Below, piece after piece: positions 1-5,621 of a DNA stretch of 64,000 nt (position 1 is the stretch's first letter; each line of letters begins with the position of its first letter). Made by a program: the position numbers and the translations under genes. This DNA comes from Candidatus Peregrinibacteria bacterium (lineage in GTDB: Bacteria > Patescibacteriota > Gracilibacteria > UBA1369), in the NCBI GenBank assembly GCA_963708185.1, contig OY970195.1, positions 640,001 to 704,000 on the forward strand, given 5' to 3'. The notes beneath the pieces were generated by a model that was not told the origin of the DNA, ran no database searches, and saw only the letters and a list, made by a program, of their open reading frames with translations.

Positions 1-560
1 GACTGGAAGGATGTTGTTGCTGTCGTCGCGGCCGTTGAAGTAGACGTTGTTGGTCGAAGCAGCCGTTCCGGTATTGGAGATGGTGCGGCGAACGTTGTTG
101 TTACTGTCCAGAATCTGAACCATGGCCGACGTAGCGACTTTGTCCAGAGTATAATAAATGGTCGTGCTTTCATTGTTCGACGGATTGAAGCTTGAAGGGC
201 TGGCGTACACGTTCGACACCACCGGAGCGTTATTGTTTGATCCATTATTGGTGATGGTGACGGAAGTGGTGTTTGTACCTGTTCCGTAGGCGTTGGATGC
301 ACTAACTTTCACGGTGTATGTTCCGACAGGAAGAATGTTGCTGCTGTCGTCGCGGCCGTTGAAAGATGTCGTATTGGTGGTTGTTGAAGATGTTCCGGTA
401 CCGCTGATGGTTCTGCGGACATTGTTGTTGCTGTCCAGGATCTGAACCATAGCGGATGTTGCCGCTTTATCGAGGTTGTAACTGATCGTCGTGGTTTCGT
501 TGTTGGACGGATTGAAACTTGAAGGATTGACGGTCAAAGACGTGACAACCGGAGCGGTGT
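1..560 (-). repeat. Near-duplicated coding repeat (~325 bp unit) of FlgD-Ig domains
   Basis: ctgtcgtcgcggccgttgaa occurs at ~20 and ~344; cggattgaa..ttgaagg and accggagcg recur at ~325-bp offset. Confidence 0.85.
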
Positions 561-1731
561 TATTGGAAGATCCATAATCAACGGCAAACGGTGAAGACTG
601 TTTGCTGTCGACGACGGTTGAAGATCCGTTGGTGAGTTCGATCTTCGCGGTGTAGTTTCCAGCAGGGACCAAGGCGTTGCTGTCGCTGCGGCCGTCCCAG
701 TTGGTGAAGTAATCATAACCGTTGGTAACGCTGGAAGAACCGAAGGTTCGAACAACGTTGTTCGAACTGTCGAGAATTTTTACGACTGCCGTTGAGCTGC
801 TATCAACAGCATAATGGATCCGGTCTGTCGTCGTGTTCGGATTGAACGATGCGTTCTCGGCATAAACATAAAGAACTTTTGGATTGTTGGTCGTGGTACC
901 GTAATCGACGGTCACCGGGACGGTTGTTACATAGGCAACCGGGGTTGCGTCGTTCTTTCCCGTAAAACGGATATAATAGGTTTTTGCTGCAACATTGGTT
1001 GAACCGACTTTTCCGTTCCAGCTGATCTGGTAGGTTCCGGCATTCTGGGTGAACGGAGAAGCACCGAGCTGGGTCAGCACGGTGTTGCCGTCGACAACTT
1101 CAATGTTGAGGTTTGCCTGGGTGTTGAGCGTATAGCTCACATAGGTTTGCTGGCCGAGGCTTGGATTGAAAGGGTTTGGGGAAGCGTTCCCGGTAGTAAT
1201 AACAACAGGCTGTGCTGCGGAATTGGAAGTGACAACGATGTTATCCTGGGCAGTGTAGGTTGCCTGGGTGCTGTCCAATTTTGCAGTAATAAGAAACTGG
1301 TATGTTCCGTCATTGACGAGCGTCCCAGTGCCATCAAGACCGTTCCACTGAGTATCATAAGCGCCGCCGTTCATGTGGATGCCGGCAGTGTGATACAGAC
1401 GATTCACTGTTGAACCGTTCTGCATGATATCGAGCCAAACCGTGGCGGGAGCGGCCAGTTCAAAATGAATGGTCGTCTGTTCGCCGTTGCTCGGTTTGAA
1501 AGTGGACGGAGTGGCCTTGGCATTGTTAATAACCCCGGTCGTGGGGCTATAAATGGCAGCCAACAGAGATGGATCTACCGTTGAGGTCGGAGTCACCGTT
1601 GAAACTCCACCGTTTGTACCGTTCACGACGGTAAAAGCGGATACGGTTTGGACCGAAGAAGAAACCACCGTAAGTACCAATGTCATGACGGTTGCCGTTT
1701 TCTTCAGCCATTGAGAAGCATATTGCAGCAT
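1..1731 (-). CDS. Large secreted surface protein with tandem FlgD-type Ig-like repeats (3' partial, runs off window)
   Basis: Manual translation from ATG at 1731 (MLQYASQWLKKTATVMTLVLTVVSSSVQTVSA, signal peptide) is open to base 1. Repeated 'PSSFNP..TTI.Y.L...V.ILDS.NNV.RT...W/FNGRD....LP.G.Y' units. Missing from the ORF track because no stop lies in the window. Confidence 0.85.
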   Translation of the reverse strand, partial: MLQYASQWLKKTATVMTLVLTVVSSSVQTVSAFTVVNGTNGGVSTVTPTSTVDPSLLAAIYSPTTGVINNAKATPSTFKPSNGEQTTIHFELAAPATVWLDIMQNGSTVNRLYHTAGIHMNGGAYDTQWNGLDGTGTLVNDGTYQFLITAKLDSTQATYTAQDNIVVTSNSAAQPVVITTGNASPNPFNPSLGQQTYVSYTLNTQANLNIEVVDGNTVLTQLGASPFTQNAGTYQISWNGKVGSTNVAAKTYYIRFTGKNDATPVAYVTTVPVTVDYGTTTNNPKVLYVYAENASFNPNTTTDRIHYAVDSSSTAVVKILDSSNNVVRTFGSSSVTNGYDYFTNWDGRSDSNALVPAGNYTAKIELTNGSSTVVDSKQSSPFAVDYGSSNNTAPVVTSLTVNPSSFNPSNNETTTISYNLDKAATSAMVQILDSNNNVRRTISGTGTSSTTTNTTSFNGRDDSSNILPVGTYTVKVSASNAYGTGTNTTSVTITNNGSNNNAPVVSNVYASPSSFNPSNNESTTIYYTLDKVATSAMVQILDSNNNVRRTISNTGTAASTNNVYFNGRDDSNNILPV

Positions 1732-2562: not shown

Positions 2563-3024
2563 TTAATCTTCTTCGTCGATTGCCAGAAGAGCTTTCAACG
2601 GGGGCAGACCCCAGTTTTTGCGGTGTTTGTTCACTGCTTCCAGGTTGTGGACCTCGGGCATTTTGCCCAACGGTTGTGGCGGAAATCTTGATTCGACAAG
2701 CTGGCGTACTTTTTCGACATCAGTCAGGTCGATGTCATGAGGAGCGTACTCTTTTCTGCCAAAGAGAAAGGTCAGTACGTTTTTCTGCAATTCCGGGTCA
2801 TGGTCCGCAGCCAAGGCGATTTGTACGGCAGCATCGTAGCCCTTTTTTCCAACCTTGCTTATGGTGGGCCAGCCGATCTGTTTAATGATTTCGCGAAGTC
2901 GTCCGGCATCTCCCCCCTTGATTCCGTCATTTTTCATGCGCGTGAGCTCTTCCCCCAGTTCAGGATGGGAACAGTTCATGGGCTGATTTTCAATTTCCGG
3001 TTGCACGTTTTCATTCATAGCCAT
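2563..3024 (-). CDS. DUF6624-like hypothetical protein
   Basis: RLREIIKQIGWPTISKVGK...ADHDPELQ...VNKHRKNWGLPPL pattern. Confidence 0.65.
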   Translation of the reverse strand: MAMNENVQPEIENQPMNCSHPELGEELTRMKNDGIKGGDAGRLREIIKQIGWPTISKVGKKGYDAAVQIALAADHDPELQKNVLTFLFGRKEYAPHDIDLTDVEKVRQLVESRFPPQPLGKMPEVHNLEAVNKHRKNWGLPPLKALLAIDEED

Positions 3025-3140
3025 ATGAAAATTTTTGAAAGGAGCCGATTGTATAAATAAGGCCCAATGTTGTCAAGCGGGCTCATTCTTCAACTTCATA
3101 TAATTTATTGGGCGATGCTCCATAAAATTTGTCATGAAAA

Positions 3141-3168
3141 TTGACAAATTTTTAAAAATTCTTATGAT
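3141..3168 (+). promoter_or_regulatory. sigma70-type promoter
   Basis: TTGACA-16 nt-TATGAT; predicted TSS ~3173-3176. Confidence 0.7.
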
Positions 3169-3172
3169 TCGA

Positions 3173-3311
3173 TGCGACTGGATGTTTTGACTGGTAGTTA
3201 CCTATTCCGCACTGCCTGCGAGTAAAAGGGTGAAACGGACTGGTGCCGTTTCTTTCTTTTCCGTTTGCCGTTGCGAGGTAGGTAGGCTGTCAGTTTGAAG
3301 CCTATGTTGCA
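3173..3311 (+). ncRNA. Candidate structured RNA / 5' leader: ~139-nt rod-like hairpin rich in G-U pairs
   Basis: Manual pairing: 3173-3211 with 3272-3311 almost continuously; 3224-3238 with 3246-3260 (gaaacgg/ccgtttc apex). Confidence 0.65.
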
Positions 3312-3341
3312 GTTCAACCAACGTGATTCCGGAGGTAGAGC

Positions 3342-3533
3342 ATGTCGCGAAGGATGGTAGAAGAGCTCGAAGAGGTATTGCCCGAGGGTAGGAATTCGGT
3401 ACCGAAGGATCGTCGGGGGAAATCCACGACGGCCCATCATCGTGCCAGCCGCGGGGGACGCGATCGTGCGAAGGTGAAGGTTCACCGTCTCAAGGCCATG
3501 AAGGCCTGCTGCTACATCGCCCGGAGCCGCTAG
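3342..3533 (+). CDS. Small basic (Arg/Lys-rich) 63-aa protein of unknown function
   Basis: GGAGGT 5 nt before ATG; promoter upstream; strong stem-loop downstream. Confidence 0.65.
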   Translation: MSRRMVEELEEVLPEGRNSVPKDRRGKSTTAHHRASRGGRDRAKVKVHRLKAMKACCYIARSR

Positions 3534-3561
3534 ACTCCGTCGCGGCTTCAAGCCAGCTTAC

Positions 3562-3595
3562 ATATGCGGCCCGGGAAACTTTCCGGGCCGCATAT
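3562..3595. terminator. Strong stem-loop between convergent genes
   Basis: atatgcggcccgg...ccgggccgcatat, 13-bp perfect stem; U-tract weak. Confidence 0.7.
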
Positions 3596-3623
3596 CCATT
3601 TCATTCACATAAAATCTGTAAAA

Positions 3624-5621
3624 TCAGGCTACAGCGATGTTCTTTTTTTGAGGTCCATAGTCTTCAGGACCGCTTAATGCGACGAGCATTTCCGCAACCC
3701 CAAAATTCCTGTCCCAGACGTTGGGATTATAGGGTCCCCGATCCGTCGTGATGAGTCCTCCCTGGTAAATATTCGTTCCGGAGTAGACATAAGGGCTGAC
3801 GTATCCCCTGTTGCGGTATCCCAATCCGTTATATTGTTCGGCAAAGGTCATCAGTTTTCCCGGATCCGTGGTGTCAGCTTTGATGCCCAATTTATCCCTT
3901 AATCCCGTGAACATACCCAGTGCGTCGATGGCTCCCGATTCCCAATCCGGAAAAGGTCCTCTCCCGGCAGGCACGTGCGTCGTTACTTTGTCCAATGGAT
4001 CGCCGTTGCCGAGGTAACGGTCAAAACGTTGTCCTGATTCACGCTGATGGATTGCCGCGATGAGCATCCATGGGATTCCAGTGGCATTTGCGACTCTTTG
4101 ATAACGCTCACGGTTGGCAAGCGTACGTTCACGAAACTCTTTCAAACGTTTTTGGTCTTGAGGCCTGATGCTCAGTTTTTCAAAATTAGAGCGGTGATCT
4201 TCCGCGATTTTTTCGTAATTTCTCGTCTTGCTGTTCGAAATGCCTTCAGGAGATTCCAAACTTCCGTTTGAAGCGTAAGCTTTATTGGTTTCGGAGGGCT
4301 TCTTGAGAGGATCGAGCATGGCAATCCTGTACTTCCTCCCCTCATCGGAAGTCAGGAGGGACGTTGAGGTGAGCGGGTTGATTCTGGAAAACTCAAAGTG
4401 CATCGAATCCGGCTTATTGGTCCATCTGCCTCCCCATTGAAACCCCACGGCTTCCATGGCATCCACGAATGCTTTGGGGACTCTCGTTTCCGGATTCAAA
4501 TTTGTCCATTGCTGATACTGAGGATTTTTTCCGGGATCAAAATCCATGGCCACGCCCCAAGTATGGTAACTCGGCGTGTTGGTTCCGGCGATGGGACGGG
4601 GATTGAAACACTGGATGACGTCAGGATCGAATTTGTATCCTTTGGCTTTCATCCGTGCTTCAGCCTCCTTAAGATACGGATAAATGAGCGCATTGATGCT
4701 GGGAATGGGCGTTCCCATAAAGTTCAACGGCCCTCCCGTGACAGGATCGACCGTGATGAGCCTTGCTCCGACCTGTTCCCAAAAATGGCGGTCGATGGCT
4801 TCATACCTTTGTCCGTTGATTTCCGTTCGTTCTTTCAACTGCGGAGGCGTATTGATACCGTATGGAGAAATGACCGGTACCAGGGGAGCACGGCGAGGCA
4901 CTTCCATCCTCCCGCCGTATCCCGTCGAGGCTGGGACCGCTCTTTTCGGAGGGTTGTAGATTTCCATATTTTCCGCGAACATACGTCGTTTCACGGCGAG
5001 ATCATCCGCAGCCTGCGTTTCGAGAATATCGATGGTCGTTCCGGTAAAGACCGGCACGTATTTGTAGACGCCTCTCTGCAACTCATTTTCGTCATAGTAG
5101 CCGATGCGGCCGTTGGCCGGGTTGATGGCGCGAACCGCTCTTTCAATGATTCTTCCGTCAGCATACTGAACGCGAATGGCCTTTGCAGAAATCGGGAGCA
5201 AATCGCCCGCCCCGACTTTACGTTCAGCGAGGTCGTTGCCTTTGAAGTCTACTTTGAAAGACATTTTTCCTTTCGCTTTCTGATCCCTGTCCAAGAAAAG
5301 AGCTGAGAGTAATTCATGTTTCTTGAGAGGATCTTTTTCGTTGACCGCTTCTTCAACGCCGGCCCTTCGGATTTCAGCGATGTTCTCGGTCTGGTCCCAT
5401 TGCGCGGCTTTTTTGGCGAACTCCGCTTTTTCTTTTGGATCAGCCTTTTCGAAACCTTCGATGAAGCCTTTCAGATCGGCACCGATTTCGCTCAGTTTTT
5501 TCCTTCCGGGCTCTACATCCGGAGACTGCGCAGCACCGGCAAATTTTTCTTTGCCTTTCTCTCCTTCGTCTTCAGGTTGCGGCATGATGTACCAGACAAA
5601 TCTCATGATTTTCCAAGACAC
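3624..5621 (-). CDS. Bifunctional peptidoglycan hydrolase: M15 peptidase plus lysozyme-family (COG5526-like) domain
   Basis: SYHTWGVAMDFD and WGGRW..PDSMHFE (M15 Zn motifs); IPWMLIAAIHQRES...LGNGDP...VPAGRGPF...EQYNGLGY...SPYVYSGT (lysozyme family). Confidence 0.85.
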   Translation of the reverse strand: MSWKIMRFVWYIMPQPEDEGEKGKEKFAGAAQSPDVEPGRKKLSEIGADLKGFIEGFEKADPKEKAEFAKKAAQWDQTENIAEIRRAGVEEAVNEKDPLKKHELLSALFLDRDQKAKGKMSFKVDFKGNDLAERKVGAGDLLPISAKAIRVQYADGRIIERAVRAINPANGRIGYYDENELQRGVYKYVPVFTGTTIDILETQAADDLAVKRRMFAENMEIYNPPKRAVPASTGYGGRMEVPRRAPLVPVISPYGINTPPQLKERTEINGQRYEAIDRHFWEQVGARLITVDPVTGGPLNFMGTPIPSINALIYPYLKEAEARMKAKGYKFDPDVIQCFNPRPIAGTNTPSYHTWGVAMDFDPGKNPQYQQWTNLNPETRVPKAFVDAMEAVGFQWGGRWTNKPDSMHFEFSRINPLTSTSLLTSDEGRKYRIAMLDPLKKPSETNKAYASNGSLESPEGISNSKTRNYEKIAEDHRSNFEKLSIRPQDQKRLKEFRERTLANRERYQRVANATGIPWMLIAAIHQRESGQRFDRYLGNGDPLDKVTTHVPAGRGPFPDWESGAIDALGMFTGLRDKLGIKADTTDPGKLMTFAEQYNGLGYRNRGYVSPYVYSGTNIYQGGLITTDRGPYNPNVWDRNFGVAEMLVALSGPEDYGPQKKNIAVA

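Follow-up and report, generated by a model that had tools for sequence, protein, structure and literature searches.

How does a short gene with a well-formed Shine-Dalgarno (SD) sequence come to stand in a genome whose other genes mostly start without one, and what might such a gene be for? This question is raised by a locus in a stretch of 64,000 nucleotides (nt) of Candidatus Peregrinibacteria DNA (contig OY970195.1, positions 640,001 to 704,000; the whole stretch is referred to below as the window), taken from a genome that consists of one contig of 1,437,033 bases with a G+C content of 0.50. The locus, called here the cassette, comprises a promoter, a long leader hairpin, an SD sequence, an open reading frame (ORF) for 63 amino acids (aa), named ORF63, and a terminal stem-loop (Table 1). 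An earlier note on this DNA had picked out a promoter, a long hairpin, a GGAGGT followed after 5 nt by ATG, a 63-aa Arg/Lys-rich ORF and a 13-bp stem, and all of them were recovered at the positions it had assigned; its view of the locus as a self-contained transcription unit with structured ends was likewise supported by the sequence and by comparison with relatives. The explanation that best accounts for the data, with a probability of about one half, is that the cassette is a monocistronic gene whose disordered product would bind RNA or the ribosome, that its translation depends on the SD, and that the leader RNA ahead of it has a regulatory or stabilising role. The comparison covered eight cassettes, namely those of the genome of the window (G000), of four further genomes that complete the genus set (G001 to G004), and of G007, G013 and G024, which represent three further genera. 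Broader searches were made in a family sample of 36 genomes (the 5 of the genus and 31 others) and in an order sample of 205 genomes.

The genomic background of translation initiation was assessed with 1142 ORFs that did not overlap and had 120 aa or more, taken at their longest-ORF starts, part of which are misplaced. Pairing energies were obtained with ViennaRNA duplexfold against the 15-nt tail of the 16S rRNA, free_scan not being their source. SD-like sequences are depleted before starts in this genome: SD core words presented no peak upstream of the 1142 starts (0.4-0.9% per position, not above the level at –40), and a pairing of –8 kcal/mol or stronger was found in 56 of the 1142 SD windows versus 116 of as many mock windows placed further upstream. 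At 804 ATG starts, G made up 5-18% of the bases from –16 to –1, and the start context (T-rich from –16 to –12, A peaking at –11, and either C or T in the last two positions, –2 and –1) resembles that of SD-independent initiation. The 3′ end of the 16S rRNA retains the canonical anti-SD sequence GATCACCTCCTTTCT. The SD-poor background described by the earlier note was thus confirmed, as was the presence of an intact anti-SD. No description of an SD pattern of this kind in Patescibacteria or in the candidate phyla radiation (CPR) was found in the article texts searched.

Against this background, an SD-like site at the right spacing was present in all eight cassettes, with predicted energies between –8.3 and –16.3 kcal/mol, the site of G003 being atypical, long and imperfect. 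In the three other genera, a strong SD (–12.0 to –16.3 kcal/mol) comes after the leader, and an ORF of 55-76 aa after the SD. It is this retention in 8/8 orthologous cassettes that lifts the SD of ORF63 above chance, and the proposal that its initiation signal differs from the genomic norm is supported. Promoters matching 10-12 of the 12 consensus positions, always with a 16-nt spacer, preceded the leader in 5/8 cassettes; that of G013 matched 9/12, and none was found in G001 and G007 under the same promoter rule. In the window, the promoter and terminator scan covered positions 2900-3800 with a promoter test that recognises the sigma-70 consensus alone, and it yielded 2 promoter-like sites versus 1.1 expected from shuffles. 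At the opposite end, the terminal stem, as the program counts it, has 15 pairs, 9 of them G-C, with a loop of 4, and the T-run that follows it is weak (CCATTTCATT). Corresponding GGCCCGGG...CCCGGGCC stems lie 3′ of the ORF in the four other genus genomes, and the U-runs after the terminal stem are better in relatives such as G003 and G004.

The cassette also keeps its place. The gene rpsT lies upstream in G004 and G002, an M15-peptidase/SLT gene lies convergently downstream in G004, G003 and G001, and a homologue of this M15 peptidase is convergent downstream of the cassette in G007, G013 and G024 as well. Searches of the region against the whole genome with blastn and tblastn returned the locus alone, and the leader matched once in the genome, so that the other cassettes of the same architecture that the earlier note had envisaged were not found. 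Because it is single-copy and occupies the same place across genera, the cassette appears to be vertically inherited and not acquired.

Which ribosomes might read such an SD is a question that leads to a second gene of the same genome, a divergent rpsU coding for the ribosomal protein bS21 (Table 1). It has its own promoter, a 10-nt SD (AAGGAGGTGA) and a terminator, and this SD, at –21.0 kcal/mol, is the strongest in the genome. The gene was found in 35/36 genomes of the family. Of 30 family loci, 29 have an extended SD in front of it (–12.7 to –22.9 kcal/mol) and one has none. Its identity is backed by the match of 22/25 members to PF01165 (Ribosomal_S21) at E <= 0.01 and by the match of the family profile to solved bS21 chains (best E 2.6e-6); genes for both bS21 and bS18 are present. 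Peregrinibacteria were frequently scored as devoid of bS21 in a survey (PMC9297842), and the present matches suggest that this absence was due to annotation score thresholds. The near-universal extended SD on this hidden bS21 gene, as read from the family loci, appears to be new. Of the layout sought by the earlier note, rpsU shares with the cassette only the promoter, the SD, the small basic ORF and the terminator, and it has no hairpin.

A precedent for this arrangement is found in Bacteroidota, according to three papers (PMC7797042, PMC9976891, PMC13000453). There, the anti-SD is kept from pairing by bS21, bS18 and bS6, ribosomes that lack bS21 translate SD-led mRNAs faster, and rpsU is autoregulated by way of its SD through such ribosomes. 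The rpsU SD in these bacteria is described as exceptionally strong, below –13 kcal/mol (PMC9976891). As those accounts present Flavobacterium johnsoniae (PMC7797042, PMC9976891, PMC13000453), the present genome is alike in being SD-depleted with a canonical anti-SD kept; the ORF63 gene resembles Bacteroidota rpsU in being small, with a very basic product, and in having a promoter and a terminator of its own as well as a conserved SD; and the rpsU of the present lineage shares the extended SD in 29/30 loci. Unlike Bacteroidota rpsU, ORF63 does not encode bS21, its product falls into none of the known families of ribosomal proteins, and its phylum is Patescibacteria/CPR. It also differs from the rpsU of its own lineage, its SD having 6 nt and –11.1 kcal/mol versus 10 nt and –21.0 kcal/mol, and a long structured leader being present in ORF63 and absent from rpsU.

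These findings bear on the idea that the cassette is a recently acquired or mobile gene, or else a transcript meant for translation by an SD-using host cell; an acquired gene and, speculatively, a host-translated transcript were among the options of the earlier note. Since the organism's own rpsU SD is far stronger than that of ORF63, its own ribosomes would use SD pairing for selected genes, which makes a host unnecessary as an explanation, and the start of the ORF63 protein, as read from the sequence, has no hydrophobic segment. The composition of ORF63 (coding G+C 0.61; G+C at third codon positions, GC3, 0.70, the 95th percentile, with a gene mean of 0.585) and the SD itself in an SD-poor genome could be taken as signs of a foreign origin, and an inverted-repeat-like pair flanks the ORF; much of the high GC3 is due to Arg, Gly and Ala codons. 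Look-alikes retrieved by a language model were short transposase-family fragments with a score of 0.90, a weak lead treated as noise, recognition being below its usual level. Conversely, the cassette occurs as one copy per genome, in the same chromosomal place in five species and beside the same convergent peptidase in three more genera, and the collection scans gave no real relatives outside the lineage. A 20-nt leader pattern met 6 stretches in the genome collection, which were the four known genus relatives and two other organisms, and the latter two stretches lie inside unrelated coding genes, with no cassette features; in the metagenome collection it met 2 stretches, both copies of the first other-organism stretch. 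Acquisition or a host-directed transcript is accordingly extremely improbable.

The leader RNA is the best conserved part of the cassette. In the window, the segment 3170-3345 folds at –65.3 kcal/mol versus a shuffle mean of –50.6 kcal/mol (z –3.6), with 0/200 shuffles as stable, and the abundance of G-U pairs assigns the hairpin to the plus strand, the same as that of the ORF. From the five genus leaders, RNAalifold derived a single long hairpin with 44 pairs, compensatory changes occurring in 12. In an alignment of seven leaders, 95.0% of the cells were standard pairs and 29/44 pairs had changed on both sides, a result matched by 0/500 shuffles; slid controls, in which partners were shifted by 1-3 columns, were paired in 43-47% and had at most 12 pairs changed on both sides. 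This alignment was fitted to a covariance model and is biased toward structure, the margin being large nonetheless. A covariance model built from the genus leaders recovered exactly one copy per genus genome plus full-length matches in G007 and G024, and a rebuilt model added G013, from a fourth genus, for a total of 8 genomes in 4 genera with one copy each; a search of 151 genomes with stricter filters did not detect the motif in any of the order's 18 other families. The lower stem has conserved arms, the apical loop reads (G/A)CUGGU in 7/8 leaders, and an extra small hairpin stands at the apex in 5/8. No Rfam family corresponded to the leader: the best match in 3050-3650 had an E of 1.6 and 19.9 bits versus a gathering score of 104, the window as a whole gave 3 tRNAs only at the gathering score, and five related loci gave tRNA only at E <= 0.1. 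A resemblance to RNase P RNA, suspected by eye, was ruled out, there being no Rfam match here and an RNase P RNA elsewhere in the genome. On this comparative evidence, the hairpin would constitute a new leader RNA motif, covarying and tied to an SD-led gene across four genera.

Several of its parts might act in the control of expression. The apical hairpin looks like an intrinsic terminator, with a U-rich run 3′ of it in 6/8 cassettes as judged by eye; in the full-length hairpin this T-rich run pairs with the upstream A-rich strand, and the terminator-like apex could act as an attenuator inside the leader. Just upstream of the stem P1, the sequence AUG-(AUC/UUC/UCC)UUU recurs in 7/8 cassettes, being absent from G004, and opens an upstream ORF (uORF) of 2-45 codons whose peptide starts with MIF, MFF, MLIF, MSF or MF and which extends into the 5′ arm of the hairpin. 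The AUG of the mini-uORF sits in the usual SD-less context of the genome, and the conserved AUG-UUU could belong to a leader peptide or merely be conserved RNA sequence. On the 3′ side of the hairpin, the near-invariant block has a core, GGTAGGYTGTCAGTTTGAAGCCT, common to 5/5 genus genomes, preceded by variable positions (GGAGG in G003, AGTAGG in G004); the leader tail is not conserved in the three other genera.

This block might also have a partner beyond the ORF. Between the 3′ untranslated region (UTR) and the leader, the perfect Watson-Crick match of TTGAAGCC with GGCTTCAA is 8 bp long in G000 as in G001. In G002 the match has 7 bp, and the 8-mers that pair in G024 are others, GCTTGAGG with CCTCAAGC. 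A second 8-bp stretch, GTAGGCTG with CAGCTTAC, seen in the sequence, would compete with the 5′ arm of the hairpin. Among between-genus control pairs, 1/36 reached an 8-bp match between leader and 3′ UTR, and in G003, G004, G007 and G013 the complementarity to the leader within 50 nt of the stop codon was not above chance. These figures come from a longest-match test, a mononucleotide-shuffle statistic having been set aside because it was inflated by terminator sequence. A matrix of duplex energies between leaders and 3′ UTRs was rejected as a test; it did not separate cognate from non-cognate pairs, and did so in part for G024 only. In the 3′ UTR of G003 (L007:1165-1205, minus strand), the leader tail recurs as a direct copy, CCTGTCAGTTTGAAGGCC, and its near-complement, GGCTTGAACACAGCC, comes after it, so that the helix between 5′ and 3′ UTR of the other species could form locally there.

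With such a leader, the RNA might be the main functional element, a cis-acting sensor or attenuator (of a metabolite, a protein, temperature or uORF translation) or else a stable RNA, with the ORF as a fast-evolving and largely interchangeable passenger. A DNA search of 40 relatives met mainly the hairpin, and its identity, 68-76% in the four genus genomes versus ~55% for the coding sequence (G000/G002), speaks for this possibility, as do the persistence of the RNA in four genera whose downstream proteins lose all detectable similarity, the terminator-like apex, the AUG-UUU mini-uORF in 7/8 cassettes and the 3′-UTR element able to pair with the 3′ arm of the hairpin in an alternative fold. Yet all 8 cassettes retain the ORF together with its start codon and SD, and every product is basic; within the genus, the ratio of non-synonymous to synonymous substitution rates (dN/dS) stays below 1; and the leader has neither an evident ligand-pocket-like junction nor a relative in Rfam. 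The SD, moreover, is unsequestered in the predicted ground state. Its predicted probability of being unpaired was 0.30-0.65; sequestration of the SD by the hairpin, considered as a candidate, received no support from the predicted folds, and a simple SD-occlusion switch is therefore not supported. A leader RNA with a passenger ORF is the main alternative, though a rather unlikely one; it is compatible with the preferred explanation and the two can coexist.

The evidence that ORF63 is a gene comes from its comparison with relatives. A homologue with 43-60% identity occurs in each of G001 to G004, a 9-sequence profile detected it in 5/5 genus genomes and in 0/31 other family genomes, and the rest of the order sample gave one weak match with an in-frame TGA; large protein collections added four more relatives. 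The conserved core is P.GR...PKDRR.K.S.A..RAGRGGR, and most sequences finish in ..ARR. Coding lengths are multiples of three in 5/5 genus genomes, changes at the third codon position were the commonest in 9/10 genus pairs, and the Nei-Gojobori dN/dS was 0.12-0.81 in the 8/10 genus pairs whose synonymous divergence (dS) was unsaturated. Of the points raised by the earlier note, conservation of the ORF was thus found, the dN/dS of the homologues was below 1, and the pattern supports coding under moderate constraint.

The opposite possibility, that the locus is a non-coding RNA in which a 63-codon frame stays open by chance, draws on the rarity of stop codons at 61-66% G+C, where a 117-aa antisense ORF in the window and an 82-aa ORF in the +1 frame of G001 are open as well. 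Because other frames of this G+C-rich stretch are open, openness alone is weak proof of coding. The entire 436-nt stretch also folds better than shuffles (z –3.0), and the protein has no known family or predicted fold. What speaks for translation is the motif PKDRR.K...RAGRGGR, kept across 9 sequences, metagenomic ones included, together with length differences in threes, the third-position excess, the dN/dS below 1 and the correctly spaced SD in 8/8 cassettes, and a purely non-coding locus is therefore improbable.

In the three other genera, the ORF behind the leader encodes products that are basic and hydrophilic, with isoelectric points (pI) of 10.1-10.6 and Arg-rich tails. No relation of ORF63 to these proteins was found with hhalign (probability <1% in 3/3). 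Judged by the same leader and the same convergent M15-peptidase homologue, they would be orthologues by position, the peptides having drifted too far apart to be recognised and the RNA having stayed. Behind every leader stands a small ORF of 55-82 aa with a basic product of pI 10.1-12. Searches of Pfam and NCBIfam returned no family for ORF63 at E <= 1; a DUF3602 match appeared in 1/9 family members (E 4.6e-4), and a profile search of the PDB gave only a 15-residue match of RAGRGGR to a helicase (E 1.1). AlphaFold2, run with the 9-row alignment, gave no fold (mean predicted local distance difference test score 58.3, predicted template modelling score 0.13), and the product is predicted to be intrinsically disordered. 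Its make-up, with a high pI and predicted disorder, would fit the binder of nucleic acid or ribosomes that had been suggested for it.

In many type I toxin mRNAs, a small orphan ORF lies between a long, structured 5′ UTR and a 3′ stem of high stability, a layout that the cassette resembles, and a type-I-toxin-like mRNA was one option of the earlier note. In this reading, the cassette would encode a type-I-toxin-like or other toxic stress peptide, its mRNA being silenced by its structured ends. The peptide itself does not agree with this reading, being hydrophilic and highly basic, with a grand average of hydropathy of –1.08 (–0.98 to –1.98 across the 8 cassette ORFs, none with a hydrophobic segment). 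No sigma-70-like promoter on the minus strand points into the cassette, the sole one found (3076-3048) facing away from it, which is a weak test, and the cassette, present once per genome, keeps its synteny across four genera. A toxin is consequently very improbable.

Among other known systems, autogenous leaders of ribosomal proteins are structured 5′ UTRs bound by the encoded protein or by a partner ribosomal protein, and many of them are in Rfam. The cassette is like them in its conserved covarying hairpin in the 5′ UTR ahead of a gene for a small basic protein of RNA-binding type, and in a leader better conserved than many coding positions. It is unlike them in having no Rfam match and no clear mimicry of rRNA, since complementarities of the leader to rRNA were limited to 8-9 nt in the 16S, with 3.75 complementary 8-mers expected by chance; moreover, the conservation between genera of the RNA and not of the encoded protein argues against the product as the ligand of the leader. 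Escherichia coli rmf is monocistronic, codes for a basic protein of ~55 aa that acts at the anti-SD region of the 16S rRNA, and has an mRNA reported to be unusually stable through UTR structure. The ORF63 gene is likewise monocistronic and small with a basic product, but it belongs to a different lineage and the absence of Pfam matches extends to RMF. A missing hibernation factor was dismissed as the rationale for ORF63, given that a gene for a long HPF-type factor is present in the genome. In the leader-peptide attenuators of erm and cat, a short upstream ORF runs into a hairpin ahead of the gene. The cassette is similar in that a uORF with a conserved start (MIF, MFF, MSF) enters the 5′ arm of the hairpin and an SD-led gene follows, and dissimilar in that the length and sequence of the uORF are unconserved, the SD is unsequestered in predicted folds and the gene is not one of resistance. 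As read from these likenesses, the cassette would combine an rpsU-like genomic logic with an RNA anatomy like that of ribosomal protein leaders and be a member of neither family.

In the preferred explanation, the cassette is a vertically inherited gene of an uncultured bacterium of Peregrinibacteria/Peribacteria type, within the CPR. Transcription from its own promoter would yield an mRNA of ~420 nt, whose 5′ UTR of ~165 nt would fold into the conserved hairpin of ~105 nt and be followed by the SD, the ORF and the terminal stem-loop. Ordinary genes of the lineage would initiate without SD pairing, the anti-SD being retained, and the small protein might come mostly from ribosomes whose anti-SD is open to pairing, such as bS21-free ones by analogy with Bacteroidota, its level being thereby tied to the state of the ribosome. 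The hairpin of the leader would stabilise the mRNA, provide a further level of control, or do both, through the attenuator-like apex, the mini-uORF or the pairing with the 3′ UTR, and the protein most likely binds RNA or the ribosome. The anatomy of the cassette, its conservation, covariation and synteny, the depletion of SDs and the extended SD of rpsU are observed. We infer from sequence and analogy, in this scheme, that the cassette is expressed, that the anti-SD is sequestered on ordinary ribosomes and that a particular class of ribosomes translates ORF63, as well as the role of the hairpin and the target of the protein.

Several observations count against this explanation. The SD of ORF63 is moderately strong and not unique in the genome, a pairing of –11.1 kcal/mol or stronger being found at 13/1142 long-ORF starts and in 24/1142 mock windows (~1-2%), and the predicted folds leave it neither clearly sequestered nor strikingly open, with no clear switch. 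dS is saturated in 2/10 genus pairs, and the other open frames described above dilute the weight of an open ORF63. Since the downstream proteins, as the hhalign comparison indicates, have no detectable homology between genera, the RNA and not the peptide may be the constrained part. To our knowledge, sequestration of the anti-SD has never been shown outside Bacteroidota. Within Bacteroidota, SD-dependent control in Flavobacteriales was concluded to be limited to rpsU (PMC9976891).

A wider reading takes the scheme further. It holds that a Bacteroidota-like system of SD-blind ribosomes evolved or persisted outside Bacteroidota, in the Peregrinibacteria/Peribacteria of the CPR, with a hidden, divergent bS21 that autoregulates through its 10-12-nt SD and a small regulon read only by ribosomes whose anti-SD is free; the cassette would be a second member of this regulon, its 44-bp leader with uORF and 3′-UTR partner would be a new class of riboregulator acting as a gate on SD-dependent translation, and the fast-evolving basic peptide would be a lineage-specific ribosome-bound factor. 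Taken as a whole, this conjunction is doubtful. If it were true, specialised ribosomes switched by bS21 would not be confined to Bacteroidota and would occur also in the CPR, which is a huge and mostly uncultured share of bacterial diversity; the SD-gated genes of CPR genomes would form a small set that can be defined, and their products may signal or tune the state of the ribosome; and a new, well-covarying leader RNA motif would be at hand with a testable job.

Table 1. Features of the cassette, of its surroundings and of related loci; coordinates are those of the window unless a contig or locus is named
Feature	Position	Strand	Remarks
Sigma-70-type promoter, TTGACA-16 nt-TATGAT	3141-3168	+	11/12 consensus matches
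AUG followed by UUU just 5′ of the hairpin; here a two-codon mini-ORF, ATG TTT TGA	3182-3190	+	
Long G-U-rich leader hairpin: lower stem, middle stem, apical hairpin with CUGGU-type loop	3190-3294	+	
Apical hairpin and T-rich run with the look of an intrinsic terminator	3232-3262	+	7-pair stem, 4 G-C, then TTTCTTTTCC
Block GGTAGGTAGGCTGTCAGTTTGAAGCCT, 3′ arm of hairpin and unpaired tail	3277-3303	+	near-invariant in the genus
SD sequence GGAGGT, 5 nt, then ATG at 3342	3331-3336	+	predicted pairing to 16S tail –11.1 kcal/mol
ORF63, 63 aa, Arg/Lys-rich, predicted disordered	3342-3533 (stop codon included)	+	18/63 residues R or K; pI 11.1
3′-UTR element GGCTTCAAGCCAGCTTAC, complementary to leader block	3544-3561	+	tentative
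Terminator-like G+C-rich stem-loop between ORF63 and the convergent peptidase gene	3562-3595	+	13 bp perfect stem
Convergent neighbour, 665-aa protein, Peptidase_M15_4	3624-5621	–	E 7.2e-18; weak SLT-type match
Second near-consensus promoter, TTGACA-17-TACAAT	3076-3048	–	11/12; points away from cassette
ORF of 153 aa, weak DUF6624 match	2563-3024	–	E 8.3e-5, below cut-off
Large ORF, 577 aa within the window	1-1731	–	runs off the edge
Divergent bS21 (rpsU), 68 aa	G000:C1:356388-356594 (L043:1501-1704)	+	single sub-threshold match to bS21 model
Second SD-led ORFs (G007, G013)	L039:917-1189; L041:830-1267	–	

In the surroundings of the cassette, the promoters at 3048-3076 and 3141-3168 face in opposite directions, so that the intergenic region is a divergent promoter pair. 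The large ORF at the edge of the window, of which the 5′ part is seen, codes for a protein with much Thr, Ser and Asn and with tandem repeats of ~90 aa (e.g. ...NAPVV...SPSSFNPSNNE.TTI.Y.LDK.ATSAMVQILDSNNNVRRTIS...), which has the appearance of a surface protein. In G007 and G013, a second SD-led ORF (GGAGGG or GGAGGT) separates the cassette from the peptidase gene; its product has a basic N-terminus, and it is without counterpart in the window. Beyond the window, the same chromosome holds a giant single open frame of 6068 aa on the minus strand at ~1.31-1.33 Mb (G000:C1).

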